Positions 27,203 through 54,326 of a stretch of 64,000 bases of DNA are shown here, one piece after another. Source of the stretch: an uncultured Eubacteriales bacterium. GTDB lineage: Bacteria > Bacillota > Clostridia > Christensenellales > CAG-138. Numbering within the stretch: position 1 is the stretch's first letter; every line of letters begins with the position of its first letter. The notes beneath the pieces are model-generated. The model saw only the letters and a program-made list of their open reading frames with translations, did no database searches and was not told the DNA's origin. The position numbers were made by a program, and so were the translations under genes. Where the stretch lies: NCBI GenBank assembly GCA_902801845.1, contig CADCJW010000010.1:19-64018 (forward strand), in the 5' to 3' direction.

Positions 27203-27262
27203 TGTTTTCTTTTGCCGCTTTTTCTCTTTGTATAAAGAGAAAAAGCGGCGCAAAAAGAGAAA
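27203..27262. repeat. Nested Y/R palindromic hairpin element (GCCGC subfamily)
   Basis: The core at 27214-27249 is GCCGCTTTTTCTCTTT-gtat-AAAGAGAAAAAGCGGC (16 bp, perfect). The outer arms are GTTTTCTTTT / AAAAAGAGAAAC. It begins 7 nt after the tyrS stop. Confidence 0.75.
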
Positions 27263-27322
27263 CTCATTTGGGATAAGGAAAAACGCCGCCCATCATCTTC
27301 TCCCCCAGTGCGTTCTTTTGCG

Positions 27323-27348
27323 CAGCTTTTCTTCCAAGAAAAGCTGCA
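27323..27348. repeat. Y/R hairpin element (GCAGC variant)
   Basis: GCAGCTTTTCTT-cc-AAGAAAAGCTGC. Confidence 0.55.
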
Positions 27349-27374
27349 AAGCTTTCCGTAAAACCTACTGACAC

Positions 27375-28752
27375 ATGACCAAGGGCACCATAAAAAACCT
27401 GCTTTCCCGTCGGGATGTGGACATGACCAGCGGCAACGTGTACGGCCTGCTGATCCGGTTCGCCGTGCCGCTGCTTTTGGGGAATCTGTTCCAACAATTA
27501 TATAACACCGTGGACACCTGGGTGGTGGGCAACTACGTAGGGAAGGAGGCCTTCTCCGCCGTGGGCACCGTGACCCCTATCCTTAACATGCTCATCGGCT
27601 TCTTCATGGGCCTGTCCACCGGCGCGGGCGTGGTCATCTCCCAGTATTACGGAGCCAAGCAGGAGGAAAAGGTCAGCGACACGGTCAATACGGCCCTGGT
27701 CATGACCGCCATTTTGGGCGTGCTGTTCACGGCCATCGGCGTGGGCATGACGCCGCTGATGCTTCGGTTCATGAAGACCCCGGCGGAGGTGTTCTCCGAG
27801 GCCCGGACCTATCTTACCATCTACTTCTCCGGCATCTTCGGGCTCATGCTCTACAACATGGGCGCAGGGATCCTCCGGGCGGTGGGCGACTCCCAGCGGC
27901 CCTTCTATTTCCTGGTTTTGTCCGCATCGCTGAACATCGTGCTGGATCTTTTGTTCGTCCTCGCCTTCCATATGGGCGTGGCGGGCGTGGCCTATGCCAC
28001 CATCCTTTCCCAGGGCATTTCAGCGCTGCTGGTGCTCCTGGTGCTCGTCCGATCCAGCAACTGCTGCAAGGTGCATGTGCGGAAGCTGAAGCTCCACTGG
28101 GCCGTGCTCAAGAAGATCGTCCGGGTGGGCATCCCCGCCGCTATCCAGATGGCCATCACCGCCTTTTCCAACGTGTTCGTCCAGTCCTACATCAACTTTT
28201 TTCGGTGCGGACTGCATGGGCGGCTGGACCGCCTACGCCAAGATCGACGCCTTTCTGTTTTTGCCCATGCAGAGCGTGTCCATGGGCGCAACCACCTTCG
28301 TGGGGCAGAATCTGGGCATGAACGACGTGCCGCGGGCCCGGCAAGGGGTGGGCGCGGCCCTCAAGATCTCGGCATTGATCACCGTGTGCCTCATGGCGCC
28401 GGTGGTGGCCTTCGCGCCCCATCTGGTCCGCTTCTTCAACGATTCGCCCGAGGTGGTCCGCTTCGGCACCCTGTTTCTCCGGCTCATGTCCCCCTTCTAC
28501 GTGCTCTGCTGCGTGAACCAGATCCTGGCCGGGTCCCTTCGCGGCGCCGGGGACAGCCGGGCGCCCATGTTCATCATGCTGTTCAGCTTCGTCCTGTTCC
28601 GGCAGATTTATCTCTACCTCATGACCCATTTCGTGGCCAACACCATCGTGGTGGTGGCCCTGGGCTACCCGGCGGGCTGGCTGGTGTGCAGCACCGTCAC
28701 CTACCTCTACTTCCGCTTCGCCCACTGGGAGAAGCACCGGATCGTCGAATAA
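27375..28752 (+). pseudogene. MATE family efflux transporter interrupted by a +1 frameshift at about 28203
   Basis: ORF 27375-28775 is MATE-like up to '...VQSYINFF', then becomes an Arg/Gly-rich out-of-frame tail. The +1 frame continues with 'GADCMGGWTAYAKIDAFLFLPMQ...' to 28752. The junction is TTTTTT-C-GGTGCGGAC. Confidence 0.8.
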
Positions 28753-28771
28753 GCTTTCAGGGAGATCGGAT

Positions 28772-29473
28772 ATGAAAAAGCCTTTGATCCTGGTCACGGT
28801 CAGCACGGAGCGCATGGACGACACGCCCATCGTGCGGCTGAACCGGGAGTACGTGAACGCCATCGTGGCGGCCGGCGGCGTGCCGGTGCCCGTGAGCCAT
28901 CGGTTCGGCATGGACGAGCTCGTGGATCTGGCGGACGGGCTCTTGCTCAGCGGCGGCGTGGACGTGGACCCGGTCCGCTTCGGACAGAAGAAGCTGAACG
29001 ATTCCGTCTGCATCGACGCAGATCGGGACGAGCTGGAGCTGGAGCTCATCGAAAAATATTGGCGGACGGGCAAGCCCGCCCTGGCCATCTGTCGGGGGCT
29101 TCAGGTGCTGAACGTGGCCTTCGGCGGCACCCTCGTCCAGGATATCCCCACCTGGTGCGGGGCGAACCATACCCAAACGGACCACCCGGTGCAGGTGGCC
29201 GCGGGGAGCCTCCTTCGCACCCTCACGCAAAAAGACACCCTGCAGGTGAACAGCTATCACCACCAGTGTGTCCCTTGGGGCGGCCTTGCCGCCGGCTTTG
29301 TCCCCACCGCCACCTGGACCGGCAACGGCGTCACCATGATCGAGGCCTTCGAGCAGCCCGGCTACCCTCTGCTGGCCGTCCAGTGGCACCCGGAGCGGGC
29401 CTACCGGGACCCCCACGGGCTCACGAACATGGACCCCCTCTTTCGCTGGCTGGTGGAAAAGGCGAGAGACTGA
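28772..29473 (+). CDS. Class I glutamine amidotransferase-like gamma-glutamyl hydrolase (peptidase C26 / PuuD-like)
   Basis: 'LAICRGLQVLNVAFGG' (nucleophile elbow), 'SYHHQ' and 'AVQWHPE'. Confidence 0.8.
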   Translation: MKKPLILVTVSTERMDDTPIVRLNREYVNAIVAAGGVPVPVSHRFGMDELVDLADGLLLSGGVDVDPVRFGQKKLNDSVCIDADRDELELELIEKYWRTGKPALAICRGLQVLNVAFGGTLVQDIPTWCGANHTQTDHPVQVAAGSLLRTLTQKDTLQVNSYHHQCVPWGGLAAGFVPTATWTGNGVTMIEAFEQPGYPLLAVQWHPERAYRDPHGLTNMDPLFRWLVEKARD

Positions 29474-29477
29474 TCAA

Positions 29478-29524
29478 CCAATGCCGCTTTCCTCTCTTCG
29501 ATGAAGAGAAGAAAGCGGCATTGG
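29478..29524. repeat. Y/R hairpin element (GCCGC subfamily) between convergent genes
   Basis: CCAATGCCGCTTTCCTCTCTTC-gat-GAAGAGAAGAAAGCGGCATTGG, 22 bp with one mismatch. Confidence 0.7.
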
Positions 29525-29532
29525 TATATGCT

Positions 29533-31095
29533 TTATTTGCCCAAATTGTCCGTGATGTCCACGGTCCGATGCTCCTGGTAGGCGGAGAACATGTCCTCCA
29601 CGTGGACCGGCCGGAAGCGGCGGGCGAATAGATCCACCAGGGGCACCAGGATGAGGCCGCCCACCATGGCGATGACGCCGGAGTAGATGGAGTTTTTGAA
29701 CACGAAGGAAAGGAGCGGTCCGCGGACGGAAAGCGCGCCCAGGGAGATCAGAAGCTGCACCGTCTCCAGACCCACGCCCCAAAGGAAGCACACCGCGGCG
29801 GAAAGCTTGGTGGCCCGCTTGGAGTAGAGGCCGTAGAGGAAGGGGGCCAGGAACGCGCCCGCCAGCGCGCCCCAGCTGACGCCCATCATCTGGGCGATGA
29901 ACAGGCTCCTGGAGCGGGCCTGCTTGATGGCGATGAGGGCGGAGACGGCGATGAACAGGACCACGAACCCCCGCATGATGAGCAGCTGCCCCCGTTCCCG
30001 AAGGGGCTTTTTCTTATGGGGCGCGATGAGGTCCAGCGTCATGGTGGAGGCGGAGGTAAGGACCAGGCTGGACAAAGTGGACATGGACGCGGACAGCACC
30101 AGCACGATGACGATGCCGATGATCACCGCGGGCAGGGAGGAGAGCATCCGGGGCACGACGGCGTCGAATCCCTCCGCCCGGACGTCGATGTCATAGAGCC
30201 GGCCAAAGCCACCCAAGAAGTAGCAGCCCCCCGCCACCACCACGGCAAAGAGGGTGGAGATCACGGTGCCCTTCTGGATGGAGGCTTCGTTTTTGATGGC
30301 ATAGAATTTGCCCACCATCTGGGGGAGCCCCCAGGTGCCCAGGGAGGTCAGTATCACCACGAACAGCAGGAATATGGGGTCCGCCCCCAGGAAGGAGGCG
30401 TACTGCCAGCCGCCGGTGGGGCCGGTGGCCAGCCGTTCCATGGCGAGGGACAGGCCCCCGTTGTCCCCCAGGACCGCCGCGATGACCGCCACGATGCCGA
30501 AGAGCATGATGATGCCTTGGATAAAATCGTTCCAGGCCGTGGCCATGTACCCGCCCAGGATCACGTATATGCCGGTCAACACCGCCATGAGGAGCACGCA
30601 TACCGCGTAATCCACCCCGGGGAAGGCGATGGCGAAGAGCCGGGACAGGCCGTTATAGAGGGAGGCCGTGTAGGGGATCAAAAACACGAAGGTGATGAGG
30701 CTGGCCGCCGTGCGCAGCTTCGGGCTTTCGTACCGGGTGCCGAAAAAGTCGGGCATGGTCTTGCTGGAGAGGTGCTGGGTCATGATCCGGGTCCGGCGGC
30801 CCAAGATGAGCCAGGCCAGCAGGGACCCAATAAAGGCGTTGCCAAGGCCGATCCAGGTGGATGCCAGGCCGAAGTTCCAACCGAACTGGCCCGCGTAGCC
30901 CACGAAGATGACGGCGGAGAAATAGGAGGTTCCGTAGGCGAAGGCGGAGAGCCAGGGCCCCACCTGTCGGGAGCCCAAAACAAAGCCGTCGATATCCCCG
31001 GCATGGCGGCGGGCGCGCAGGCCGATCCACAGCATGATGGCGAAGAAGCAGACCATGAAGAGCAGGGTGATCAGGGAAGCGGAGTTCATACACAT
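29533..31095 (-). CDS. Sodium:solute symporter family (SSS) transporter
   Basis: Polytopic protein of 520 aa with an SSS-like N-terminus: 'GFVLGSRQVGPWLSAFAYGTSYFSAVIFVGYAGQFGW'. Substrate unknown. Confidence 0.8.
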   Translation of the reverse strand: MCMNSASLITLLFMVCFFAIMLWIGLRARRHAGDIDGFVLGSRQVGPWLSAFAYGTSYFSAVIFVGYAGQFGWNFGLASTWIGLGNAFIGSLLAWLILGRRTRIMTQHLSSKTMPDFFGTRYESPKLRTAASLITFVFLIPYTASLYNGLSRLFAIAFPGVDYAVCVLLMAVLTGIYVILGGYMATAWNDFIQGIIMLFGIVAVIAAVLGDNGGLSLAMERLATGPTGGWQYASFLGADPIFLLFVVILTSLGTWGLPQMVGKFYAIKNEASIQKGTVISTLFAVVVAGGCYFLGGFGRLYDIDVRAEGFDAVVPRMLSSLPAVIIGIVIVLVLSASMSTLSSLVLTSASTMTLDLIAPHKKKPLRERGQLLIMRGFVVLFIAVSALIAIKQARSRSLFIAQMMGVSWGALAGAFLAPFLYGLYSKRATKLSAAVCFLWGVGLETVQLLISLGALSVRGPLLSFVFKNSIYSGVIAMVGGLILVPLVDLFARRFRPVHVEDMFSAYQEHRTVDITDNLGK

Positions 31096-31117
31096 AGTTT
31101 CCTTTCGTCAAAATGGA

Positions 31118-31151
31118 CAAAAAAGAGCGTGGCACCGGCCCGGCGCCACGC
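31118..31151 (-). terminator. Leader terminator (attenuator 3:4 hairpin) upstream of the symporter
   Basis: Minus strand: GCGTGGCGCCG-ggc-CGGTGCCACGC followed by TCTTTTTTG. It lies about 20 nt before the symporter SD. Confidence 0.6.
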
Positions 31152-31173
31152 CCTCAGAACACGTTTCAAGGGA

Positions 31174-31254
31174 TCATGGGCACAGCCGACCGGCCTTGCT
31201 GCGGGCAGCAAAGCGGTAATAATAATACCGAGCTGTGCGGCGAACGGCGATCAT
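31174..31254 (-). CDS. Candidate leader peptide MIAVRRTARYYYYRFAARSKAGRLCP (four consecutive Tyr codons)
   Basis: The ATG is preceded by GGGAGGG, and there is an in-frame upstream ATG at 31266. TAT TAT TAT TAC occupies 31227-31216. The stop lies 22 nt before the terminator hairpin. Confidence 0.45.
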   Translation of the reverse strand: MIAVRRTARYYYYRFAARSKAGRLCP

Positions 31255-31283
31255 ATGCCCTCCCATGCCTTAAAAGTGTATAT

Positions 31284-31312
31284 AATTTACCACTTAAGGG
31301 GGCCTCTGTCAA
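31284..31312 (-). promoter_or_regulatory. Promoter of the symporter leader
   Basis: Minus strand: TTGACA, 17-nt spacer, TAAATT. Confidence 0.5.
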
Positions 31313-31348
31313 GAAAAATATATGATTTGGTCTATCCAAGGGCGTCCG

Positions 31349-32092
31349 TTACGTGAACTCCCCCGTGTAGAGGCAGATGCGGCCGGAAAAGATGCCCGTC
31401 AAAGCTTCCACCAGCTCCTGCCGGGCGCCGTTAGACAGATCATAGACCTCCAGCCGGGCGGGGGCCATGCCCACCAGAAGGCTGATGAGCCCCTCGCCGG
31501 TCTCGTCCACGTACTCCATCCGGAGGGCCTCCCCGTCGGACAGGGAGCAAAGGCCGTCCCTATGGAGGCACAGCCGAAGGGCGGGGCATCGGGGCGGCCG
31601 CTCGTTCAGCAGCAGCCGCAGCACGTCCGCCGCCCGGGCGTATTCCTGTTCCAGCAGCAGCGCGGAGAAGGCCTCCTCCACGCAGAGCCGCCAGAAGAGG
31701 ACCGTCTCCTGCATCCGAAAGCGCAGGAACCCCTCCAGACACAGCTTCCCCTCCTCCTTCAGATAGGCGGTCAGCCGCTGTACCGTTTCGCTCAGGTCCT
31801 CCTTCTGCCGGGCCGCGTCCACCGCCCGGGCAAGGACCTGCCGCTTTTCGGGGAGTGGCAGGGGCGTCTCGTCCGTCATGGCCGCCACCTCGAAGGACAC
31901 CAGATCCTCCGTGATCAGCGTCCCCAGGGCCCGGGCAAGGGTCTCCAGCCCGTACCGCCCCTCCATGCGCACGCCCACGCCGCCCTGAGCCGCCAGCAGG
32001 GAAAAGGGCGCGCCGCCCTCCCGGAGCCGCCGATCCAGCAGCGCCTCCAGGTCCACATCATATTCCATTGTTTGAATGATCCAGGACGACAC
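31349..32092 (-). CDS. ytxC: Putative sporulation protein YtxC
   Basis: 'KLCLEGFLRFRMQE' is a YtxC-like motif. The GTG start at 32092 is supported by the SD GGAAGGAAG. Confidence 0.6.
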   Translation of the reverse strand: MSSWIIQTMEYDVDLEALLDRRLREGGAPFSLLAAQGGVGVRMEGRYGLETLARALGTLITEDLVSFEVAAMTDETPLPLPEKRQVLARAVDAARQKEDLSETVQRLTAYLKEEGKLCLEGFLRFRMQETVLFWRLCVEEAFSALLLEQEYARAADVLRLLLNERPPRCPALRLCLHRDGLCSLSDGEALRMEYVDETGEGLISLLVGMAPARLEVYDLSNGARQELVEALTGIFSGRICLYTGEFT

Positions 32093-32232
32093 CGAACTTC
32101 CTTCCCGATGAAACGCTTTCCTTTCATCCTATGTGGGTCGGTGTCTATTGTGTGCGGGAATGCGGATGTTATTCTTCAAAAGATCTTTACTATGGCAATA
32201 AGGTTTTTTGCTGCTGTCATTTTTCAAAAATG

Positions 32233-32296
32233 CATTTCTCTTTTTCCGCCGCTTCTTCTCTTTAGCCGAAAGAGAAAAAGCGGCAAAAGAAAAACA
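32233..32296. repeat. Nested Y/R palindromic hairpin element (GCCGC subfamily)
   Basis: The core at 32247-32283 is GCCGCTTCTTCTCTTT-agccg-AAAGAGAAAAAGCGGC. The outer arms are TTTCTCTTTTT / AAAAGAAAAAC. It ends 2 nt from the mutY stop. Confidence 0.75.
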
Positions 32297-32297
32297 C

Positions 32298-33296
32298 TCA
32301 CCGAAGACACTTCAAAAACGCTTCGGGGATGGGCTCGCCCCCCGTGTACCAGACCCAGCCCGGCGCCTCGATCCGCTCCGCGTTCAAGCGGACCACCTGC
32401 ATGTGCCAGATCACGTGGGTGAAGATGTGCTGCCGCTGGACGATCTCCCAGGCCCCCAGGGGCCGGACCCCCAGCTTTGTCAGCGCCTGGCCGATCCTTT
32501 CCTGATCGAGATGCCCGCTTTGGTTCGGCAGCTCGTACAGCCCCGACAGCAGCCCCGTCTCCGGCCGCCGACGAATGAGGAAGCTATCCCCGCTCCTCAC
32601 GACGAACACGGTCAGATCCTCCTGCCGCTTCGCCTTCTTCTCCCCCCGGTTGGGGTAGTCCGCCTGGGTGCCGTGGGCATGGGCCAGGCACGTCGCCCTT
32701 AGGGGACAGCTTTCGCACAGGGGCGATTTGGGCAGGCAGATCAGGGACCCCAGATCCATGAAGGCCTGGTTCAAATCCCCGGGACGGTCGCCCATGCGGC
32801 TTTTGAGATACGCGGTCCACCGGTCCCGGACCTTTTGCTCGGTCACGTTCTCCCCGTCCTCCATGAGCCGGGCCATGACCCGGAGCACGTTCCCGTCCAC
32901 GGCGGGCTCAGGCCGGCGGAAGGCGATGGAGGCGATGGCCCCGGCGGTGTAGGGGCCGACGCCGGGAAGCTTCTTCAGCTCCTCCACGGTCTGGGGGAAC
33001 CTGCCCCCGTGCTCCGCCACCACGGCCTGGGCGCACTTCTTCAAATTTCGGGCCCGGGAATAGTATCCCAGCCCCTCCCACAGCTTTAAAAGCCGCTCCT
33101 CCGGGCACTCGGCCAGGGCTTCCACCGTGGGGAGCGCCGCCATGAACCGGCCGTAATAGGGGATCACCGCCGCCGCCCGGGTCTGCTGGAGCATGATCTC
33201 CGACACCAGAACGGCGTAGGCGTCTCCGGCCCCCCGCCAGGGCAGGGTCCGTTTGTTTCGATCGTACCATTGGAGCAAAGTATCCGTAAATTCCAT
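32298..33296 (-). CDS. mutY: A/G-specific adenine DNA glycosylase
   Basis: I moved the start to ATG 33296, giving MEFTDTLLQWYDRNKRTLPWR. The HhH motif is 'LPGVGPYTAGAIASIAF'. The 4Fe-4S cluster loop is 'CLPKSPLCESCPLRATC'. The C-terminus is a NUDIX-like domain. Confidence 0.88.
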   Translation of the reverse strand: MEFTDTLLQWYDRNKRTLPWRGAGDAYAVLVSEIMLQQTRAAAVIPYYGRFMAALPTVEALAECPEERLLKLWEGLGYYSRARNLKKCAQAVVAEHGGRFPQTVEELKKLPGVGPYTAGAIASIAFRRPEPAVDGNVLRVMARLMEDGENVTEQKVRDRWTAYLKSRMGDRPGDLNQAFMDLGSLICLPKSPLCESCPLRATCLAHAHGTQADYPNRGEKKAKRQEDLTVFVVRSGDSFLIRRRPETGLLSGLYELPNQSGHLDQERIGQALTKLGVRPLGAWEIVQRQHIFTHVIWHMQVVRLNAERIEAPGWVWYTGGEPIPEAFLKCLR

Positions 33297-33366
33297 GAAA
33301 GCAGTATACCATACCCAGGGCAAATGTGCTATACTGGTATCATCACAAAAGAAGAAGGAAGCAAGT

Positions 33367-33927: not shown

Positions 33928-33946
33928 ACCGGGACCAAAACACCAA

Positions 33947-33981
33947 GACGGCAGGTCTCAAACGGCCTGCCGTCCTTTTTG
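33947..33981. terminator. Bidirectional rho-independent terminator
   Basis: GACGGCAGG-(10 nt)-CCTGCCGTC followed by CTTTTTG. The opposite strand is also T-rich. Confidence 0.7.
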
Positions 33982-33991
33982 TAAAATACGA

Positions 33992-34714: not shown

Positions 34715-34726
34715 CCATCCGTCCTT

Positions 34727-36057: not shown

Positions 36058-36172
36058 ACGATATTCCTCCATATCCTGCACTGTATCAGAAAGACTTGTC
36101 AAGGATGCAACAAAGGGGTTAACAAGGTGTTAATTCTATCGTGCACGCCGAGCAGAACAGCGCGGAAGCGGG

Positions 36173-36820: not shown

Positions 36821-36837
36821 ATCTTTTCCTCCTCCAT

Positions 36838-36985
36838 AAAAAAATCCGCACCGTCGGGCAACGGTACGGAAAAACTGCTCTATGGCGCCGCTTCCTCCGA
36901 TGGCATTACCCAACAGGTTCCAAGGGTACTTCTCAGGCCGACGCGAGGAATATGATTCCGAGCTTCGGTCGCCCCTGCGATCAAG
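36838..36985 (-). promoter_or_regulatory. TPP (THI-box) riboswitch with terminator
   Basis: Minus strand: CAGGGGCGACC...GGCCTGAGAAGTACCCTTGGAACCTGTTGGGTAATGCCATCGGAGGAAGC. The terminator is CCGTACCGT-tgcccg-ACGGTGCGG followed by ATTTTTTT. Confidence 0.85.
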
Positions 36986-38029: not shown

Positions 38030-38046
38030 GGCTCGAAGGGAAGGGG

Positions 38047-42689: not shown

Positions 42690-42720
42690 GGACCACCTTT
42701 CTTGAAAGAAAGGTGGTTCC
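42690..42720. repeat. Y/R hairpin element (variant)
   Basis: GGACCACCTTTCTT-ga-AAGAAAGGTGGTTCC with one bulge. A half-copy, CTCTTTTTCGGTTCC, lies at 42778-42793 next to the DUF4349 stop. Confidence 0.5.
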
Positions 42721-42797
42721 AAAGAACTTCAAAAGGGGAATACAGTATCGGTACGGACCCATATATCCCCTTAAGTATCTCTTTTTCGGTTCCAGCC

Positions 42798-48305: not shown

Positions 48306-48406
48306 ATCTTGTGCATTCCTCCCAAATCTTACAGGCCAGTATACCACACCTTGTGCCCGACTCGCTGGGTTTTTCTTCTTTTTTTACTGATTGTTAATGT
48401 TTTTTT

Positions 48407-48443
48407 GCGACTTTTTCTCTTTGTACAAATGAGAAAAAGTCGC
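48407..48443. repeat. Y/R hairpin element (GCGAC subfamily)
   Basis: GCGACTTTTTCTC-tttgtacaaat-GAGAAAAAGTCGC, flanked by T7 and CCAAAAAGAAG. Confidence 0.7.
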
Positions 48444-48451
48444 CCAAAAAG

Positions 48452-48506
48452 AAGCTTAAGAAAAAAGGAAGGGATAGCGATCCAAACGCAATCCCTTCCT
48501 AAGCTT
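48452..48506. repeat. Imperfect long hairpin between two Y/R elements
   Basis: AAGCTTAAG-a6-GGAAGGGAT-(15 nt)-ATCCCTTCC-T-AAGCTT. Confidence 0.5.
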
Positions 48507-48515
48507 TTCTTTTCG

Positions 48516-48548
48516 GTTCCTTTTCTTTTCACTGAAAAGAAAAGGAAC
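48516..48548. repeat. Y/R hairpin element (GTTCC subfamily)
   Basis: GTTCCTTTTCTTTTC-act-GAAAAGAAAAGGAAC (15 bp, perfect). It ends 6 nt from the stop of the zinc-ribbon protein gene. Confidence 0.75.
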
Positions 48549-48553
48549 AAATC

Positions 48554-49240
48554 TCAATCCTCCCTAAGGTCCGTCAGCAGCCAGCCGATGCCGGCCCAGA
48601 CCTTCAGGGCGGTGCCGCAGTAGCTGCAGACCTTGGAGCCCACGGCGGGGATGGGCGCGCCGCAGTTGGGGCAGTTGGCCTTCCGAACGCCGTTCTCCGT
48701 GTCCGTGGCCCAGGCGGCCAGGTACTTGAGGATCAGCCGCCGCTGCCGGGTGACGCCGGCGGGGTCCTTGAAGGCGGCCGCCGCCTGGAAGGTCAGTACC
48801 CGATCCTCGGACACGTCGTCATAGGCGGCCAGGGCCACCTTGTGGATGCGGATATCCCCCGCCACGTCCGGGGGCAAAAAGCTTTCGAGCCGCTCCCGCA
48901 GCTGATCCGAGATGCCGTCCGCGTAGAGGCACTTTCCCGCCTGGGCGCTCTCATAGAAGGTCCTGGCGTCCTTCGTCACCCGCTGCCGGATCAGCTCCGG
49001 ATTATACTCGGGAAAATCCCGCTTGATCCGGTTCAGGAGCAGCGGCTCCGCCGAGGACAGGGACTTGGGCGTGTTCTCCGCCTCGTAGTCCGCCTTTTTG
49101 ATGATGTCCGTCACGGTGGAGGCCAGACGCCCCACCTTGGTCGCCGAGCGGACGATGGCCCGCAGCGCGACGATGGCTCCGCCGCCGATGAGCAGCACCA
49201 GCAGGATCGTTCCGATCCCTCCTATACTCAAACCTTCCAT
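48554..49240 (-). CDS. Membrane-anchored protein with a C-terminal zinc ribbon (Tim44-like middle region?)
   Basis: I moved the start to ATG 49240. It has a TM helix (GIGTILLVLLIGGGAIVAL) and 'CPNCGAPIPAVGSKVCSYCG'. Confidence 0.5.
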   Translation of the reverse strand: MEGLSIGGIGTILLVLLIGGGAIVALRAIVRSATKVGRLASTVTDIIKKADYEAENTPKSLSSAEPLLLNRIKRDFPEYNPELIRQRVTKDARTFYESAQAGKCLYADGISDQLRERLESFLPPDVAGDIRIHKVALAAYDDVSEDRVLTFQAAAAFKDPAGVTRQRRLILKYLAAWATDTENGVRKANCPNCGAPIPAVGSKVCSYCGTALKVWAGIGWLLTDLRED

Positions 49241-49308
49241 ACCGCGCCTCCCATGATCCTTTAGATGGAGTATACCAGACCCCGCGGCCCATCGCAATAG
49301 CCGCCGAC

Positions 49309-49346
49309 AAAAAGCGGAGAACGGCCCGTTCCGCTCTCCGCTTTTT
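49309..49346. terminator. Bidirectional rho-independent terminator
   Basis: AAAAAGCGGAGA-(14 nt)-TCTCCGCTTTTT. Confidence 0.7.
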
Positions 49347-49360
49347 GAATGCGCTGTGCC

Positions 49361-50662
49361 TTACTTGCCCGAGATGGTGATGCCGTCGAAGGCCATGTAG
49401 GGCAGGACGGTCATGCCGTCGGCCACCTGCTCGGTGGAGATGGCCCGAAGCCGGTTCAGCATGTCGGCCATGTTGCCGGAGACCATGGTCTCGGAGAGGG
49501 CGCGGCCGATCTTCCCGTTTTCGATGAGGAAGCTGTTCTTGGCCACGCCGGAGAAGTCGCCGTTGCTGGCCGGCTGACCGCCGGAGAACCGGCCCACCAG
49601 GATGCCCTTGTCGATGGAGGCGATGATGTCCGCGATGGGCTTGTCGCCGGGGGCCACGATCACGTTGAAGCTGTCGTTCTTCCCCCGGGGAAGCTTCAGC
49701 TTGTTGGAGGCGTAGAGCCCCAGATAGAAGGCGTTCAGCTTGCCGTTTTGGATAATGTCGAAATCCTCCGCCCGGAAGCCCTCGCCGGTGGTCCTGTTCC
49801 CGCAGACGATCCGCTCGTCGAGGGGCGCCAGGCTGATGGTGATCCGCTCGTCCGCCACTTTTTCCCCCAGCTTGTCCTTCCAGGGGCTGGTGCCGGAGAG
49901 GAGGCCGCCCTCGCCCGCGAAGTCGGAGAGCAGGGAATAGAACAGGGACCCAAGGCATCCGGGCATGACCACCATGGTGCCCTCGAACTTGCCGGAGACG
50001 CCGGTGGTCTCGATCTGCTTCTGGACGTTTTCAAGATCCTCCGCCAGGGACCCCATCTCCAGGAAGGGCCTGTCCAGGCTGTCGGCAATGACGCCGCTGC
50101 CGAAGAAGGAGGAGGCCTTGTCGCCGTCGTGGCCGGAGAACATGAGCTGGACCTCGTAGCAGCCCTCGTGGGTGGAGAAGAGCACGCCGTAGGAGTTGGC
50201 CTGGGCCTTGCAGATCTCCTTGTGGGCCACGATCATCTGCTCCATGATGATCTTGGGGAACCGCTCCTTCACCGACGCCATGAGCTCCTGGCAGCGGAAG
50301 AAGAGCCTGTCCGTGTCGGGCTTCACCTGCCCCAGCACGAAGTCCTCGTTTTGGGAAACGGGCGCGAAGTCCCAGTTCTCGTCGGGCTGGGCCGAGGCCG
50401 CGGCCTCCAAACACGCCTTGGCGCTCTCGGCGATGGTCTTTTCGTCGTACCGATTCTGGGCCACGGTGCCCTTTTTGCCGCCCTCTATGGCGGTCATGGC
50501 CAGCTGCTTGTCGAACAGGGTGCGGAAGAGGCTGAACTCGCCTCCGTCCACGTTGAATTCATGGGTGACGGTATAGGACACGTTGGCCTGGGTCTTGTCC
50601 GCGCCGGCGTCCTGCAGGGCGGCCACCGCCGCCTGGGCCGTTTTCTTCAAAGTTTCGATCAT
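49361..50662 (-). CDS. pmbA: TldD/PmbA family metalloprotease, PmbA (TldE)-like subunit
   Basis: 433 aa. It is collinear with and paralogous to the upstream tldD-like gene. The C-terminus 'GVAKNSFLIENGKIGRAL' is typical of this family. Confidence 0.75.
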   Translation of the reverse strand: MIETLKKTAQAAVAALQDAGADKTQANVSYTVTHEFNVDGGEFSLFRTLFDKQLAMTAIEGGKKGTVAQNRYDEKTIAESAKACLEAAASAQPDENWDFAPVSQNEDFVLGQVKPDTDRLFFRCQELMASVKERFPKIIMEQMIVAHKEICKAQANSYGVLFSTHEGCYEVQLMFSGHDGDKASSFFGSGVIADSLDRPFLEMGSLAEDLENVQKQIETTGVSGKFEGTMVVMPGCLGSLFYSLLSDFAGEGGLLSGTSPWKDKLGEKVADERITISLAPLDERIVCGNRTTGEGFRAEDFDIIQNGKLNAFYLGLYASNKLKLPRGKNDSFNVIVAPGDKPIADIIASIDKGILVGRFSGGQPASNGDFSGVAKNSFLIENGKIGRALSETMVSGNMADMLNRLRAISTEQVADGMTVLPYMAFDGITISGK

Positions 50663-50675
50663 GGCTTTTCCCTCC

Positions 50676-52067
50676 TTATCGTCCGCCGATGGTCACCCGG
50701 CACTTGATGGCCGGTCCGCCCATGCCCACGGGCATGGGCTGCTTCTTGCCGCACATGCCGGAGCTGGCCCAGATCATTTCGTCCGAGATCATGTCCACGG
50801 TCTTGAGCATGTCGAAGGCCACGCCGGAGATAGTGGTGTCCAGGAGCGGCCTGGCCAGCTTCCCCTTCTTGATCTCGTAGCCGAAGGTGACGCCGAACAT
50901 GAACTCGCCCGTGGTGTCCGCCTGGCCGTTGTTGGTGTCCAAAAGATAGTAGCCGTCGTCGATGGAGGCGATCATGTCCTCCAGCTTGGACGTGCCCGGC
51001 AGCACGGCGGTGTTCCGCATGCGGATCAGGGGCTCGTCGGAGAAGAGGAAGGCCCGGGCGTTGCCCGTGGGGGCCATGCTGAAGCGCTCGGCGCTCTCCC
51101 GGCTGTTCATGTACCCCACCAGGATGCCGTCCCGGATGAGCACGGCGTCGGTGGCGGCGGTGCCCTCGTCGTCCACGTAGATGGGCAGGGGTGTGGGCTT
51201 GCCGAAGGCGGTGTGGGCGTAGTCCACCAGGTTCACGAGATCGCTGCCCACTCGCTTATGGAGGCAGGGCCCCGCCACGGACCCGCCGATGACCAGATCC
51301 GCTTCCACGGTGTGGCCCACGGCCTCATGGGCCAGCATCCCGGAGAGGATGCCTCCCAGGATCACGGTCTTGTTCCCCGCGTCGGGATAGACGCCGTCCT
51401 TGGCCTTCTGCTGGATCCGGTCATAGAGGCCGTCGATCTCGTCGAAGCAGTCCTCGGGCTTCGAATAATTCTGATCGAAGGTGCCGTAGCCGCCGCCCAC
51501 CACCTTGTAGAGCTCCACGGGTTTGCCGTCGGCACCCATGGCGGTCATCATCACGTAGATGTAGCTCCGGGGGAGGATGCTGTGGCCGTCGCAGCCGTTG
51601 CTGACGCACAGGAGCTTCTCCATGGAATCGCCCATGACCACCACGGTCCTGCTGACCAGATCCGGATACTTCCCGGCAATGTAGTTGTCCAGGGCCTGGG
51701 CGAACTCGATGTAGGTCCGCTGCTCCACGTCGGTAAGGTCGTAGGCCGTGACGATCCGGTTGGGGGCCATGGCCTTGTGGGGTCCCTTGCCCTTGCCGGC
51801 ATGCTTCGCCAGGAAGGCCGCGTTCTCGCTGGCCGCCTTCAGCACGTCCTTCACGGTCTCGTCGGTGTACTCCGCCGTGGAGGAGAAGCCGTAGACGCCG
51901 TTTTCGTAGACCCGGGCGGACACGCCGAATTGCTCCGTCCGCACGTTGCCCACCAAGGCCCCATTCAAGAGCACCGCCCGCCGGTTCATGTTCCGCTGGG
52001 CCCTGAGCTCCGTGTTGGCGCCCGAGGCAAACAGATACTTTTTGTTCGTCAAGAGATCCTGTATCAT
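50676..52067 (-). CDS. tldD: TldD family metalloprotease
   Basis: I moved the start to ATG 52067 (SD AAGGAG). 'GILSGMLAHEAVGHTVEADL' carries the HExxxH-type metal site typical of TldD. Confidence 0.8.
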   Translation of the reverse strand: MIQDLLTNKKYLFASGANTELRAQRNMNRRAVLLNGALVGNVRTEQFGVSARVYENGVYGFSSTAEYTDETVKDVLKAASENAAFLAKHAGKGKGPHKAMAPNRIVTAYDLTDVEQRTYIEFAQALDNYIAGKYPDLVSRTVVVMGDSMEKLLCVSNGCDGHSILPRSYIYVMMTAMGADGKPVELYKVVGGGYGTFDQNYSKPEDCFDEIDGLYDRIQQKAKDGVYPDAGNKTVILGGILSGMLAHEAVGHTVEADLVIGGSVAGPCLHKRVGSDLVNLVDYAHTAFGKPTPLPIYVDDEGTAATDAVLIRDGILVGYMNSRESAERFSMAPTGNARAFLFSDEPLIRMRNTAVLPGTSKLEDMIASIDDGYYLLDTNNGQADTTGEFMFGVTFGYEIKKGKLARPLLDTTISGVAFDMLKTVDMISDEMIWASSGMCGKKQPMPVGMGGPAIKCRVTIGGR

Positions 52068-52277
52068 CTGCACGCTCCTTTGTTTGGATTGACGGCCGTC
52101 GCCGGCTGTGTTCTGCCTAGTATACCATATTTTTCCCGGTTGTGGAATCATCCAGCCGTTGAGTTCACAAAAAATCCCCCTCAACCGGGGGAAAGTCGAT
52201 CCTCCCGGCCATGCCGTTGACGCAGATCAAGCCATCGTGTACAATCAGGCAAAACGGATCGGCATCGGGAGGGCATC

Positions 52278-52754
52278 ATGGACATCACCTTTACGACGGA
52301 GGAGGGACGGTTCAACTATCGGGTATGCGCCGTTTTGCTGGATGGGGGACGGATACTGGCCATGCACGACGAAAACAGCCCCTATTTCTATCTGCCCGGG
52401 GGCCGGGTCAAGATGGGGGAACGGGCGGAGGACGCAGTGCTCCGGGAGGTGCGGGAGGAGCTGGGGATCGAGGCGAGGATCCTCCGGCCCCTGTGGCTGA
52501 GCCAGTCCTTCTTCAACGAGGACGTGACGAAGGTGGATTTCCACGAGCTATGCCTCTACTTCCTGCTGGACGCTTCCGGCACGGACCTGCTGACAAGGGG
52601 CGACCGGTTCAGAGGCCCGGAGCGGCGCCACGTCCACGATTTCGAATGGCTGCCCTTCGACCGGCTGAAGGACGAATATTTCTACCCCCTCTTTTTGAAA
52701 ACGGAGATCTATCGTCTGCCGGAGCATTTGACCATCCGAACGGATCTTGAGTAA
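52278..52754 (+). CDS. NUDIX hydrolase
   Basis: Nudix box 'GGRVKMGERAEDAVLREVREELG'. Confidence 0.85.
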   Translation: MDITFTTEEGRFNYRVCAVLLDGGRILAMHDENSPYFYLPGGRVKMGERAEDAVLREVREELGIEARILRPLWLSQSFFNEDVTKVDFHELCLYFLLDASGTDLLTRGDRFRGPERRHVHDFEWLPFDRLKDEYFYPLFLKTEIYRLPEHLTIRTDLE

Positions 52755-52762
52755 AACGCTTA

Positions 52763-52792
52763 GCCGGGATACCCTTCCCGGCCTTTCTTTTT
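52763..52792 (+). terminator. Rho-independent terminator after the NUDIX gene
   Basis: GCCGGG-(8 nt)-CCCGGC followed by CTTTCTTTTT. Confidence 0.6.
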
Positions 52793-52825
52793 GCGACGAT
52801 TTTCCCTTCACCGAAAAGAAAATGT
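52793..52825. repeat. Degenerate Y/R hairpin element (GCGAC-type left end)
   Basis: GCGACGATTTTCCCTTC-accg-AAAAGAAAATG. The arms are imperfect. Confidence 0.35.
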
Positions 52826-52896
52826 TACAATCTCCCATCCCAAAATCACAGTTTCCTTGCATTTGTGCCCTTTTGATTTCAAATTCGAGGGGTAGG

Positions 52897-54160
52897 ATGA
52901 GAGCATCAGAAAAGGAGATGAACGCTATGGAACATCCTGAAACTAACAGAGCTCGGCGGCAAGGTCGCCTGTCGGTGGGCGTGGGTCTGTTTTTGACCTG
53001 CCTCGTGCTGACCACCATCATCGGCCTCTTCGGCGGTCTCATGATCAGCAACTATACCCACAACAATTACGTGATGTACGCGGAGAAGGCGGAGACGGCC
53101 CCCGTCCAGCGGGAACTGCAGCAGGCCGTTCCGGAACCGGCCCAGGCCGGCGGGGAAAGCGAAGCGAAGGCCGAATCCAACGCGGCCGACGCGAAAGCCG
53201 GTACCATGGCCGCCTTTGCCGAGAACAACCAGTTCACCAAGGCCCAGATCGTGGAGATGAGCGCCCCCTCCGTGGTGGGCATCGACACCGTCACCACCGT
53301 CACCACAAATAACTTCTGGTACGGCTACGGTCAAAGCTATGAGGCCCCCGGCAGCGGCAGCGGCGTGATCCTCACCGAGGAGGGCTACATCGCCACCTGC
53401 GCCCACGTGGTGGAGGGCGCCAAGTCCGTGAAGGTAACGCTGAACGACGACACCAGCTACGACGCCACCATCGTAGGCACCGACAAAAAGAACGACATCG
53501 CCATCATCAAGATCGAAGCCAAAAATCTGACCCCGGCCATCGTGGGCGACTCCACGATTCTGACCGTGGGCAGCGAGGTCATCGCCATCGGCAACCCCCT
53601 GGGCGAGCTCCGGGGCACGGCCACAGCGGGCATCATCTCCGCCACCAACCGGACCATTGAGGTGGAGGGCCAGGCCATGACCCTGATTCAGACCGACGCG
53701 GCCATCTCTCCGGGCAACTCCGGCGGCGGCCTCTTCGACGCCACGGGCAAGCTCATCGGCATCGTCAACGCCAAGGTCAGCGACAGCCGGGCCGAGGGAT
53801 TGGGCTTCGCCATCCCCGTGAACAGCGTGCTGGACGAGATCAGTGAAGGGTCGTCCCTATCTGGGCGTGGCGACCCAGGACGTGACGCTGCGGAGCCGGG
53901 ACCGCATGTGGTACTACTCCGAGGGCACCCGCTGCGTACTGGTGGAGAAGGTGGTCCCCGACAGCGCCGCCGAGAAGGCGGGCATCCAGGCGGGGGATCT
54001 GATCCTCAAGCTGGAGGACAAGCAGATCGCCTCCGGGGATGATCTTTCCAGCGCCATCGGTGCATATAAACCCGGCGATACGGCCACACTTACCTTGCAG
54101 CGGGACGGCAAGGAGATGACCGTAGAGGTCACCTTCGGCGAATACGCCCCTGCGAACTAA
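52897..54160 (+). pseudogene. htrA: HtrA/DegP-type S1C serine protease with a PDZ domain, interrupted by a +1 frameshift at about 53845-53851
   Basis: The trypsin domain is in one frame ('GSGSGVILTEEGYIATCAHVV', 'DIAIIKI', 'ISPGNSGGGLFD'). The PDZ domain is in the +1 frame ('(V)KGRPYLGVATQDV...AEKAGIQAGDLILKLEDKQI'). The start is uncertain: 52897, 52918 or 52927. Confidence 0.8.
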
Positions 54161-54208
54161 CCCATATTCGCCTGAACAGGCGTTTGTTGGATACCCCTCC
54201 CCCCAATC

Positions 54209-54248
54209 AAAGAGGGCGGTACAGAAGTTGATCCGTACCGCCCTCTTT
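54209..54248. terminator. Bidirectional rho-independent terminator
   Basis: AAAGAGGGCGGTAC-(12 nt)-GTACCGCCCTCTTT. Confidence 0.7.
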
Positions 54249-54267
54249 GTCCGTTTATATGGTTGTG

Positions 54268-54326
54268 CTTCTCTTTTTTCGGTTCCTTTTTCTCTTCCCA
54301 TGAAGAGAAAAAGGAACAAAGAAAAG
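54268..54326. repeat. Nested Y/R palindromic hairpin element (GTTCC subfamily)
   Basis: The core at 54282-54317 is GTTCCTTTTTCTCTTC-ccat-GAAGAGAAAAAGGAAC (16 bp, perfect). The outer arms are CTTCTCTTTTTT / AAAGAAAAG. It ends 3 nt from the hydrolase stop. Confidence 0.75.

Follow-up and report, generated by a model that had tools for sequence, protein, structure and literature searches.

A mosaic intergenic repeat family occurs in rumen Christensenellales-type Clostridia, and the hairpins found beside stop codons in the window (the whole 64,000-nucleotide stretch of DNA that was analyzed) are very probably modules of its composite elements. Judged by its architecture, the family appears to be an A/T-rich variant of the E. 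coli BoxC/PIT "intrastrand triplex" repeats, the closest known kind, rather than a set of ordinary terminators, because the tract beside each hairpin mirrors the purine arm, a three-strand signature.

Hairpins and composite elements in the window

The hairpins are real and exceed chance expectation. All those listed by an earlier note on this DNA are present at, or no more than 1 nt from, the positions it gave (starts 27214, 27322, 29477, 32248, 42690, 48407, 48516, and 54282 below), as are its degenerate copy (52793-52828) and its "half copy" (42776-42793). Its gene names and stop-codon adjacencies are correct, and so is its report that U-tracts are absent: direct reading found no T-run after the stems on either strand, and the hairpins are missing from lists of terminator-like structures. 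The core CTTTTTCTCTTT, with up to two mismatches allowed, matched 13 times in the window against 2.07 expected, a count reached by none of 100 shuffles. Pyrimidine-arm-first hairpins numbered eight, compared with a mean of 0.09 and a maximum of 1 across 200 Markov resamplings, and the same criteria returned no purine-arm-first hairpins in the window. Predicted RNA folding energies ranged from -14.9 to -35.7 kcal/mol (z-scores -4.6 to -9.7).

These hairpins had been described as nine equivalent copies of a single nested hairpin, a unit that we replace with a mosaic composite of ~150–170 nt; the pairs 27214 and 27322, 48407 and 48516, and 42690 and 42776 are the modules of three such elements. 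In order, a full element comprises a T-rich flank, hairpin H1, a purine tract, a variable central hairpin, a pyrimidine tract, hairpin H3, and a short tail, so that two modules, inverted relative to each other, flank a central hairpin of locus-specific sequence. Each module is a GC-clamped hairpin (pyrimidine arm, then purine arm) with an adjoining tract complementary to the purine arm in parallel orientation, and hence the mirror of the neighboring arm. Arms are strictly homopurine or homopyrimidine and clamps are mixed, and the join between tract and hairpin consists of 2–4 nt plus a 4–5-bp clamp (5–10 nt overall). An A-tract precedes the central hairpin and a T-tract follows it; the long central stems have a GC content of only 41%. 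The inverted module pair folds as one long hairpin. The "outer Y/R arms" of the earlier description are not a simple second stem, as the inner tract mirrors rather than complements the neighboring arm. The elements and their parts in the window are as follows.

27203-27369, plus strand: composite element 1, spacer between tyrS and the MatE gene
27203-27213, plus: T-rich outer flank
27214-27249, plus: H1
27252-27263, plus: purine tract AAAAAGAGAAAC, mirror of the H1 purine arm (AAAGAGAAAAA / AAAAAGAGAAA)
27264-27311, plus: central-hairpin slot, degenerate, 3' half replaced
27312-27319, plus: pyrimidine tract GTTCTTTT, TTCTTTT mirroring the H3 pyrimidine arm TTTTCTT
27322-27347, plus: H3
27348-27369, plus: tail
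48398-48548, plus strand: composite element 2, spacer between the zinc-ribbon gene and the gyrB-like gene, antisense to both
48398-48406, plus: T-rich flank
48407-48443, plus: H1, one mismatch
48446-48455, plus: purine tract AAAAAGAAGC, short by one base
48466-48500, plus: central hairpin
48504-48513, plus: pyrimidine tract CTTTTCTTTT, exact mirror of arm TTTTCTTTTC
48516-48548, plus: second hairpin, arm TTTTCTTTTC
42690-42793, minus strand: composite element 3, spacer between the DUF4349 gene and the amidohydrolase gene, sense on the minus strand
42690-42719: H3-type hairpin
42720-42727: complement of the pyrimidine tract (tract TTCTTT, arm TTTCTT, three T's each)
42733-42772: central hairpin
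42776-42786: complement of the purine tract
42787-42793: clamp remnant CGGTTCC
32235-32294, minus strand: partial element, 3' of mutY
32235-32245: pyrimidine tract TTTCTCTTTTT
32248-32284: H1, with a C:A mismatch on the plus strand that is G:U on the mutY transcript
32285-32294: A-rich outer flank
54208-54326, minus strand: partial element between convergent genes
54208-54249: GC-rich hairpin occupying the central slot
54268-54279: pyrimidine tract CTTCTCTTTTTT
54282-54317: H1, arm TTTTTCTCTTC
54318-54326: outer flank
29477-29525, no strand assigned: solo 23-bp hairpin, arm GCCGCTTTCCTCTCTTC, filling the convergent GATase/SSF spacer
52763-52828, plus strand: degenerate half element, 3' of the NUDIX gene
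52763-52782, plus: GC hairpin
52783-52792, plus: pyrimidine tract CTTTCTTTTT
52793-52828, plus: decayed hairpin (TTTTCCCTTC / GAAAAGAAAA)

Completeness varied among these elements. Element 3 is missing the H1 hairpin itself at the gene end, the solo hairpin has no mirror tract, and the element beside mutY lacks a second hairpin and carries a decayed central hairpin on its left, with a perfect core in its ortholog in the related stretch L100. In the element at 54208, the tract (CTTCTC...) has the C that corresponds to the G in this variant of the purine arm (GAAGAGAAAAA).

Spread, genomic setting, and turnover

Enrichment extends beyond the window. A pattern scan of genome contigs, requiring an exact match to 24 specified bases, found the core in at least 112 stretches from ~11 rumen Christensenellales-type species-level MAGs, at a density of roughly 85–125 hairpins per Mb. 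Arms that are nearly identical recur at loci that are not orthologous and across families (Christensenellales, Oscillospiraceae SIG666, and a Clostridia MAG of 39% GC). When 123 copies were aligned with their flanks, the extension was asymmetric; 99 copies could be oriented, 64 of them with the second hairpin, and a consensus was built from a 47-sequence alignment. The earlier view of dispersed, multi-copy extragenic palindromes of the REP/BIME/BOX kind, not represented in Rfam, is borne out, except that the single hairpin is not the unit.

The covariation proposed for the stem-base 5-mer also holds. In a sample collected by the core alone, the four-nucleotide clamps were complementary in 92 of 103 cases (null of about 1 in 20) and fell into 9 distinct complementary types, and RNAalifold showed compensatory changes in 10 of 24 pairs. 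Selection on the hairpin is supported by the covarying clamps, the compensatory pairs, and the exclusively pyrimidine-first polarity.

Elements almost always sit 3' of genes, 11–38 nt from the stop codon, and usually fill the spacer. Divergent spacers are avoided (3 of 81 contexts), and tandem contexts show no strand bias (31 sense, 24 antisense). The difference in minimum free energy between strands did not track gene direction, and mismatches were of both the G:U type (25) and the A:C type (18), with wobble-compatible ones on both strands. Separately, we observed the same hairpin-plus-mirror design 3' of tRNA genes in DPANN archaea.

Turnover of the elements is seen between close relatives, and their positions coincide with breakpoints of recombination and of synteny. 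At the site orthologous to 29477-29525, relatives carry either a complete composite or just a plain terminator, or have an empty site, compared with the solo hairpin of the window, and synteny with five related contigs stops at 29464-29530. The left half of element 1 is identical in relatives L086 and L123–L127 and the right half is different; in this comparison, a recombination breakpoint falls inside the element. The central part of the L128 element is orthologous to the plain terminator of L125.

Mirror tracts and the predicted triplex

The earlier note remarked on mirror symmetry between the outer pyrimidine run and the inner arm, with the potential to form H-DNA, and this relation turned out to be the key feature and to be valid across the family. 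More than 12 variants of the purine arm, differing in run length or in A/G, are each paired with their own matching tract: AGAAA/TCTTT, AGAAAA/TCTTTT, AGAAAAA/TCTTTTT, AAAAAA/TTTTTT, GAAAAGAAAAA/CTTTTCTTTTT, GAAAAGAAGAAA/CTTTTCTTCTTT, AAAGAGAAAA/TTTCTCTTTT, and GAAGAGAAAAA/CTTCTCTTTTT. With descent ignored, arm-tract agreement across 59 distinct types was 0.888, compared with 0.81±0.016 in permuted data (0 of 2,000 permutations reached it), and was exact in 25 of the 59 (9.2 by permutation, descent likewise ignored). Tracts read in reverse scored lower (0.767), and the outer flank gave no signal. Since arm variants group in subfamilies that also share clamp types, independent concordant changes number about ten, not hundreds. 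A reading-frame explanation of the mirror was excluded by test.

Templated copying cannot generate mirror repeats. Physically, they would make sense only as parts of a triple helix (T·A-T, C+·G-C). This sequence symmetry suggests that triplex folding is probably the selected feature. The selected form would be one strand folded as tract, pyrimidine arm, and purine arm into a pyrimidine-motif intrastrand triple helix of class IV, built from T·A-T triples and isolated C+·G-C ones. In this fold, the third strand would need to reach the A/T part of the hairpin with the clamp paired. The complementary strand would read as class II, a purine-motif reading that would be weak for such A-rich strands. 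Because pairing between the two tracts also forms the base of the central hairpin, the triplex would compete with an ordinary duplex.

Known systems and alternative explanations

The REP/BIME/BOX kind named in the earlier note remains apt; absent from that note were the nearest named relatives, BoxC/PIT/TMECO (PMC4666352). BoxC/PIT (potential intrastrand triplex) elements, described by Hoyne et al. 2000 as cited in PMC4666352, occur in E. coli and other Proteobacteria and have no known function (Holder et al. 2015, PMC4666352). TMECO/BoxC repeats are intergenic without strand bias, form inverted pairs of types A and B, and lie at more rearranged loci; their single strand forms a triplex in vitro, and in vivo footprinting of TMECO gave no sign of a stable triplex (PMC4666352). 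Both families have three consecutive homopyrimidine/homopurine blocks on one strand (Y-R-R, the third mirroring the second), are multi-copy, strictly intergenic, and without strand bias, often pair two copies of different subtypes in inverted orientation, and occupy loci unusually variable among close relatives. Their sequences, however, are unrelated: A/T-rich TTTTTCTCTTT in a 62% GC Firmicute here, G/C-rich CCCTCNCCC/GGGNGAGGG there. The triplex favored here would be of the pyrimidine motif, also open to RNA, the second spacer contains a covarying 4–5-bp GC clamp in place of the 3-nt loop of TMECO, and the pair encloses a long central hairpin. The bias here is strongly 3' of genes, whereas TMECO is more often upstream of ORFs (PMC4666352).

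As in H-DNA mirror repeats, a purine/pyrimidine tract is mirror-symmetric about a short spacer. Classical H-DNA leaves half of one strand unpaired, whereas here one mirror half also belongs to an inverted repeat, and the natural fold would therefore be intrastrand, a triplex formed by one single strand or by an extruded arm.

ENE/MALAT1-type RNA triple helices are viral and eukaryotic 3'-end stabilizers, the ENE gripping the A-rich 3' tail in a U-rich internal loop. The elements could resemble them in U·A-U major-groove triples, with occasional C+·G-C, at transcript 3' regions, but share no sequence or architectural homology, and here a U-rich tract on the 5' side would supply the third strand to its own downstream hairpin. 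In such an RNA-level device, which we consider unlikely, the U-rich tract and distal hairpin of transcripts reading past the central hairpin would join in a triple helix of U·A-U and C+·G-C, capping the 3' end against 3'-to-5' exonucleases or backing up termination. In function, such a device would be a prokaryotic analog of REP stabilizers and ENE/MALAT1 helices, with the inverted pair serving both directions. The position just past stop codons and the avoidance of divergent spacers fit such a role. By the anatomy of the element, the distal module is the pyrimidine-motif, RNA-competent one in each direction of transcription, and T-rich third strands with isolated C's have the composition that forms triplexes at neutral pH, pyrimidine-type intrastrand triplexes also forming in RNA (PMC4666352). 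Element 3 keeps its distal module intact with the proximal one lost, the second hairpin is retained in 24 of 30 cases when distal and 14 of 22 when proximal (a difference that is not significant), and the DPANN design also follows genes, there for tRNAs. However, no signal is strand-specific, in stability or in wobble-compatible mismatches; the proximal module in tandem contexts, incapable of an RNA triplex, is no less intact than the distal; and the partial element at 32248 retains the proximal module only.

REP/BIME/REPIN sequences of Enterobacteria and Pseudomonas, associated with RAYT transposases, are short extragenic palindromes with covarying stems, present in hundreds of copies and in mosaic clusters. 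Their inverted doublets form a long hairpin, and they occupy 3' ends and convergent intergenic spacers, becoming part of transcribed 3' UTRs. Covarying stems, inverted doublets, and 3'-end and convergent siting are shared with the present family; the homopyrimidine/homopurine arms of fixed polarity and the mirror tract are not, REPs having no mirror tract. A selfish REP/REPIN- or MITE-type element, its hairpins serving as sites for a trans-acting transposase such as RAYT and its mirror tracts incidental or part of protein recognition, would account for the multiple copies, the near-identical arms at non-orthologous loci in different families, the REPIN-like long hairpin, the presence/absence differences at orthologous sites, and the extragenic 3' bias. 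We nevertheless judge it unlikely, more so than the RNA-level device. The searches made turned up no machinery for mobility, no duplicated target, and no phage or plasmid carrying the elements: there was, in a weak test, no IS200/RAYT-like ORF in 0.98 Mb of partial genomes searched with an approximate query sequence, neither a target-site duplication nor a conserved GTAG-type 5' tetranucleotide around elements, and no copy among 2.9 million viral contigs. A cut-and-paste unit also leaves the locus-specific center, orthologous in L128 to a plain terminator, unexplained, and protein recognition does not produce mirror symmetry.

That the hairpins are unrelated intrinsic terminators, alike through base composition, is extremely improbable and contradicted by sequence identity between loci: although they lie at gene 3' ends, and the central part resembles a bidirectional terminator (A-tract, hairpin, T-tract) and is a canonical GC-rich one in L125 and at 54208-54249, H1 and H3 lack the T-run that canonical terminators in the window have, most central stems are long and A/T-rich, the flanking hairpins and mirror tracts are foreign to terminators, polarity is exclusive (8 versus 0), and convergence cannot explain one 24-base core recurring unchanged in at least 112 stretches.

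Overall, we lean towards a DNA-level, triplex-type mosaic repeat as the best explanation, and any particular function is doubtful. The fold would matter mostly in the DNA itself, while it is transiently single-stranded or extruded. The elements may behave as palindromic repeats that recombine and amplify and that are tolerated nowhere but at transcription-unit 3' ends, where they would also place very stable 3' structures on transcripts arriving from either direction.

A multi-copy family of composite intergenic repeats

Hairpins with the pyrimidine arm first were far more numerous in the window than expected by chance. A mechanical scan (stems of at least 11 positions, at most one mismatch) recovered eight, compared with a mean of 0.09 and a maximum of 1 in resampled sequence, and the same scan found no purine-arm-first hairpins in the window. 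Allowing at most two mismatches, the core CTTTTTCTCTTT matched 13 times in the window versus 2.07 expected. Folding energies of the hairpins ranged from -14.9 to -35.7 kcal/mol, with z-scores of -4.6 to -9.7. The earlier note had taken these hairpins, all of which are present, for a REP/BIME-like dispersed element with H-DNA potential. It had the right kind of element, but its account was incomplete, as the real unit is a composite. In the following list, H1 and H3 are the first and second hairpins of a composite, and a module is a hairpin with its adjacent tract.

27214-27249 and 27322-27347: two modules of one element
48407-48443 and 48516-48548: two modules of another element
42690-42719, with a supposed half copy at 42776-42793: third element, H1 lost
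32248-32284, 54282-54317 and 52793 (the last not among the eight): partial elements
29477-29525: solo hairpin

The hairpins had been described as lying beside stop codons of named genes, and a GC3-based gene map with Pfam bore this out. A stop codon lies a few bases from every window hairpin, and the neighbors are tyrS, MatE, SSF, mutY, DUF4349, an amidohydrolase, a zinc-ribbon protein, a gyrB-like gene, NUDIX, and an alpha/beta hydrolase. H1, H3, and the solo hairpins do not have the form of an intrinsic terminator, a GC-rich stem with a U-tract within 0-2 nt. As first reported, no T-run follows their stems on either strand, unlike the canonical terminators of the window, which do have one, and they are absent from the window's terminator-like sites. 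We found no convincing pair of -35/-10 hexamers by eye inside the element in either orientation, and window scans listed no promoter-like sites in elements.

Other features of the window were recorded alongside. Its G+C content is approximately 62%, falling to only about 51% in positions 1-4000, where a gene-poor interval (1649-2868) holds two long perfect hairpins of another kind, at 1957-1989 (AATCCCCCGAAAAC...) and 2508-2547 (CAAACAAATACCCCCACC...). Rfam at the gathering score matched only a T-box leader in the window, upstream of tyrS (25709-25929, RF00230, 111 bits). Since the T-box overlaps the longest-ORF call at 24848-25894, the 3' end of that call is probably overcalled. A permissive Rfam scan of 27150-27420 gave only matches to generic hairpins (miRNA precursors), well under the threshold; the element is absent from Rfam. 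The locus is also present in cattle rumen metagenome assemblies.

We aligned 123 exact-core copies with their flanks, oriented them, and derived a consensus from 47 non-redundant copies. The aligned copies revealed an asymmetric element far longer than a single hairpin, extending about 150 nt to the end of H3 and about 170 nt including the tail. The composite consists of two inverted modules, each a hairpin plus a tract, around a central hairpin.

Consensus parts of the composite element, in order
1. T-rich flank, tTTTcTTTT
2. Hairpin H1, GCCG-CTTTTTCTCTTT, loop, AAAGAGAAAAAG-CGGC
3. Two G/C bases
4. Purine tract, AAAAAGAGAAAC
5. Central hairpin, semi-conserved lower stem CTTAAGAAGG...CCTTCTTAAG and locus-specific apex
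6. Pyrimidine tract, (A)GTTCTTTT
7. Two or three G
8. Second hairpin H3, e.g., GCAGC-TTTTCTT-tca-AAGAAAA-GCTGC
9. Weakly conserved tail, GCTTTCAATAAATTCC

The second hairpin was recognizable in 64 of 99 oriented copies, with sequence types TTTTCTT, TTTTTCTTTTC, or another TTTTTCTCTT. Hairpin loops span 3-7 nt, and the spacer from tract to arm spans 5-10 nt, including the paired clamp of 4-5 bp. Stem bases had been reported to covary, and they do so in a sample that makes the test non-circular, as copies were found through the core alone: four-base clamps were complementary in 92 of 103 copies and comprised nine complementary types, against a null of about 1 of 20 types. RNAalifold recovered H1 and H3 from the 47-sequence alignment, with compensatory double changes in 10 of 24 pairs. 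The paired stems have been selected for, or inherited.

The sequence of the central hairpin is locus-specific and MAFFT misaligns it, which is why RNAalifold, applied to the whole composite, missed it; we used per-sequence folds there. In these folds, a long central hairpin forms (median -19.1 kcal/mol, z-score -3.7), with the purine tract paired to the pyrimidine tract at its base. An A-tract before and a T-tract after this hairpin give the central region the layout of a bidirectional terminator. Most central stems are unlike typical terminator stems, and G+C content in the central stem is only 41%; in some loci, the slot is occupied by a canonical GC-rich terminator (e.g., 54208-54249). In one related contig, L128, the composite that follows the GATase gene has a central hairpin (GGACCGTGG...CCACGATCC) orthologous to a plain terminator without modules in two others, L125 and L127 (GGATCGTGG...CCACGATCC), so in at least one case the terminator was already there when modules were added or removed around it. 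That every central hairpin is a native terminator is only partly right. It holds for L128 versus L125, yet the lower stem CTTAAGAAGG/CCTTCTTAAG is conserved from locus to locus.

A family-wide mirror relation between hairpin and tract

Each hairpin is mirrored by the tract next to it. After H1, the purine tract (AAAAAGAGAAA) repeats the H1 purine arm (AAAGAGAAAAA) in reverse order without complementing it, and before H3 the pyrimidine tract (TTCTTTT) is the H3 pyrimidine arm (TTTTCTT) read backward. Read on its pyrimidine strand, each tract is the parallel complement of its own hairpin's purine arm. The earlier note had seen outer runs mirroring inner arms, and this proved to be a relation between hairpin and adjacent tract that holds across the family. 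It survives sequence change: in more than 12 variants of the arm, the tract matches. These variants group into subfamilies, and the independent coupled changes number approximately ten.

Purine arms and their matching tracts
AGAAA: TCTTT
AGAAAA: TCTTTT
AGAAAAA: TCTTTTT
AAGAAAA: TTTCTTTT
AAAAAA: TTTTTT
GAAAAGAAAAA: CTTTTCTTTTT
AAAAGAAAAA: TTTTCTTTTT
GAAAAGAAAA: CTTTTCTTTT
GAAAAGAAGAAA: CTTTTCTTCTTT
AAAGAGAAAA: TTTCTCTTTT
AAAGAGAAAAAA: TTTCTCTTTTTT
GAAGAGAAAAA (8 of 8): CTTCTCTTTTT

Across 59 distinct arm/tract combinations, the mean fractional parallel match was 0.888, compared with 0.81±0.016 for permuted pairings, and none of 2000 permutations reached the observed value. Exact agreement anchored at the 3' end occurred in 25 of the 59 combinations, versus 9.2 expected and a permuted maximum of 18. 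Mirroring coincides with the strictly homopurine/homopyrimidine stretch of the stem and excludes the GC clamp; the outer flank on the hairpin's other side gave no mirror signal.

To our knowledge, templated processes give direct or inverted repeats, never mirror repeats, and the only physical arrangement we know of that demands the parallel complement of a purine strand is the pyrimidine-motif triple helix (T·A-T, C+·G-C). We infer that the mirror relation would arise since a single strand folds tract, pyrimidine arm, and purine arm into a triple helix. In the predicted geometry, the third strand would have to span the paired clamp between tract and arm. A tract may instead pair with the opposite tract; in common composites, direct reading of the alignment shows that it fits its own hairpin better. 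A tract serving as Watson-Crick partner or direct repeat of the arm was rejected, as the reversed reading scored 0.767 versus 0.888. A reading frame or small ORF behind the +1/+1/+1 length covariation was likewise rejected, with module lengths modulo 3 distributed 29/15/13 and stop-free frames not general.

Distribution, genomic context and turnover

The family is enriched beyond the window, as the earlier note's dispersed element implied: the pattern CTTTTTCTCTTY N3-6 RAAGAGAAAAAG matched at least 112 stretches in a scan of one genome per species, and pyrimidine-first hairpins occurred at 85 per Mb in these loci outside the seeded copies, compared with 125 per Mb in the window. Among the at least 112 stretches listed, 93 had a G+C content of at least 56%. 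These came from approximately eleven MAGs labeled uncultured Clostridiales, Christensenellales, or Clostridia (RUG10656, RUG11019, RUG13181, RUG472, RUG14803, RUG11425, RUG14416, RUG14781, ruminal_MAG_432, RGIG5880, and SRR11784291_bin.26 among the matches listed), most with roughly nine to thirteen stretches among those matches. A phage vehicle was rejected, with 0 matches to the pattern among 2.9 million viral contigs (IMG/VR).

Similar structures were also seen outside this group. A hairpin-plus-mirror-tract module of near-identical sequence occurs in Oscillospiraceae SIG666 (49% GC; L015 4311-4370 and L113 427-490) and in a Clostridia MAG (39% GC; L050 1389), in each case followed by TTTTTT and without the Christensenellales central hairpin. 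Near-identical modules across families of very different base composition suggest horizontal spread or strong sequence constraint.

DPANN archaeal MAGs (Iainarchaeum-type) carry the same hairpin, CTTTTTCTCTTTT / AAAAGAGAAAAAG, then a conserved spacer of about 13 nt (TAGACGGCCAGTC-like), then AAAAAGAGAAAA, the mirror of the purine arm. Copies lie in contigs L012 (1437-1620), L036 (5536-5740), and L042 (1677-1800), and also in L026, L032, L079, and L119. The hairpin stands 7-8 nt downstream of tRNA-Arg, tRNA-Ser, and tRNA-Lys genes, and in L012 and L036 the 3' end of the tRNA is repeated about 100 nt later, as if after an integration event. In a Diapherotrites MAG (PEXL01000054; L121 ~7110-7200), a tandem array of ~24-nt units, AAAAGAAAA(A)GAGAAAC TAGTTG(C/T)C, follows directly after the hairpin.

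The polarity of the element is exclusive, and it is placed 3' of genes without strand bias. Among 81 oriented copies with both neighbors called, 31 were co-directional sense, 24 co-directional antisense, 23 convergent, and 3 divergent, and the element usually filled the whole spacer.

Copies turn over rapidly and are associated with breakpoints. The site orthologous to window 29474-29532 differs among relatives, listed here by identity of the GATase protein.

States of the site orthologous to window 29474-29532
96% identical: same solo hairpin
97%: decayed full composite
83% (two relatives): plain terminator
80%: nothing
72%: full composite

The solo hairpin (29464-29530) is where synteny ends, inside or at the hairpin, in comparisons with contigs L124, L125, and L126 and with L086 and L100 of MAG RGIG5880. 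In RGIG5880, the two sides of the site are on separate contigs, each beside decayed module remnants. The element between tyrS and MatE has a left half identical in the window and five relatives (L086, L123-L125, and L127). To the right (compared over window 27264-27375), the window has its own version of the central hairpin's 3' half, of the tract, and of H3, and the MatE gene also begins differently. The recombination breakpoint falls within the central loop, with the tract/arm match kept in each version. In another pair of orthologs (L028 ~1000 versus L083 1513-1560), one has a single copy (GTTCTTTTTCT...) in place of the pyrimidine tract and the second hairpin's pyrimidine arm. This apparently arose by deletion between similar T-rich runs and is an example of module decay.

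Relation to known repeats and possible roles

The nearest known kind of repeat is BoxC, also called PIT or TMECO, found in E. coli and other Proteobacteria with the consensus CCCTCNCCC N3-6 GGGNGAGGG N3 GGGNGAGGG (PMC4666352). TMECO has the Y-R-R order of a 'class II' intrastrand triplex motif, and its complement falls in the pyrimidine-motif class; it is strictly intergenic, lacks strand bias, and forms inverted pairs of two subtypes (PMC4666352). It has neither promoter nor terminator activity, its loci vary between strains more than controls do, and its single strand forms a triplex in vitro that was undetectable in vivo (PMC4666352).

The rumen family shares with it multiple copies, block order, mirror rule, inverted pairs, intergenic location, lack of strand bias, and instability. 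Its three blocks read Y-R-R (H-Y-R on the other strand), the third mirrors the second, and the corresponding triples would be T·A-T/C·G-C or A·A-T/G·G-C. Hairpin loops of 3-7 nt compare with 1-6 nt for the ITxF definition and 3-6 and 3 nt in TMECO, and the tract-to-arm spacer of 5-10 nt lies beyond the published definition. Unlike TMECO, the family is A/T-rich and unrelated in sequence, so it is of the same kind without belonging to the TMECO family proper; it also has a covarying GC clamp within the second spacer, a long central hairpin, and a strong bias to the 3' side of genes. Judged from sequence, the intrastrand-triplex repeat class gains a new variant here, one that is A/T-rich and composite. 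Because the family is A/T-rich, the pyrimidine motif would be the plausible triplex, possible in RNA too, and the purine motif would be weak.

There is also a resemblance to REP/BIME/REPIN in copy number, palindromy, doublet structure, and location, and the hairpins have the size of REP-type repeats (20-40-bp extragenic imperfect palindromes, often in inverted doublets). Unlike REP, they lack a GTAG-type tetranucleotide at the 5' foot, where a T-rich run or mirror tract precedes the clamp. They also differ from REP/REPIN in having no detected RAYT: tblastn gave no match to an IS200/RAYT-like ORF in 0.98 Mb, a weak test with an approximate query and partial genomes. Size (<200 bp) and inverted modules would fit a MITE, but its target-site duplication was not seen, as flanking direct repeats were no longer than the permuted null. 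Literature searches for the core sequences returned only unrelated primers and eukaryotic sequences, and a search for intrinsic terminators with triplexes or mirror repeats returned no bacterial precedent.

The putative triplex could act in DNA or in RNA; the two roles are compatible, and both are candidates. At the DNA level, it would form where strands are transiently single or arms are extruded, as DNA is replicated or recombined or as the element spreads. In RNA, it would cap read-through transcripts with a triple helix located behind the terminator. The RNA role gains no strand signal from fold stability, mismatch types, or retention of the second hairpin. The strand difference in stability was independent of gene direction (-0.4 kcal/mol sense, -2.8 antisense), and G:U-type and A:C-type mismatches had similar frequencies. 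The second hairpin was kept in 24 of 30 copies when distal to the upstream gene versus 14 of 22 otherwise, which is not significant. Because both modules are conserved whatever the direction of transcription and an RNA-strand signal is lacking, we consider the DNA-level role somewhat more likely. A stronger proposal, which we think improbable, is that the three-way covariation reflects a selected pyrimidine-motif triple helix in living bacteria that acts in RNA as a 3'-end cap or terminator fail-safe, a prokaryotic counterpart of the ENE/MALAT1 triple helices with a convergent version after DPANN tRNA genes.

The elements mark recombination and synteny breakpoints, and at about 100 of their hairpins per Mb they are frequent enough to affect assembly and annotation in a widespread rumen bacterial group. 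Ever since BoxC/PIT was described, it has been asked whether bacterial cells form intramolecular triplexes and whether these matter to them. For the E. coli motif, neither function nor formation in vivo could be shown (PMC4666352). That motif is nearly invariant, whereas the rumen family has many natural variants in which the presumed third strand changes with its duplex. The family's main value lies in this variation, which offers evidence of the covariation type for a base-triple fold and opens the triplex question in bacteria to experiment. Because the composition favors the T·A-T/U·A-U motif, RNA triple helices may also be possible at prokaryotic 3' ends.
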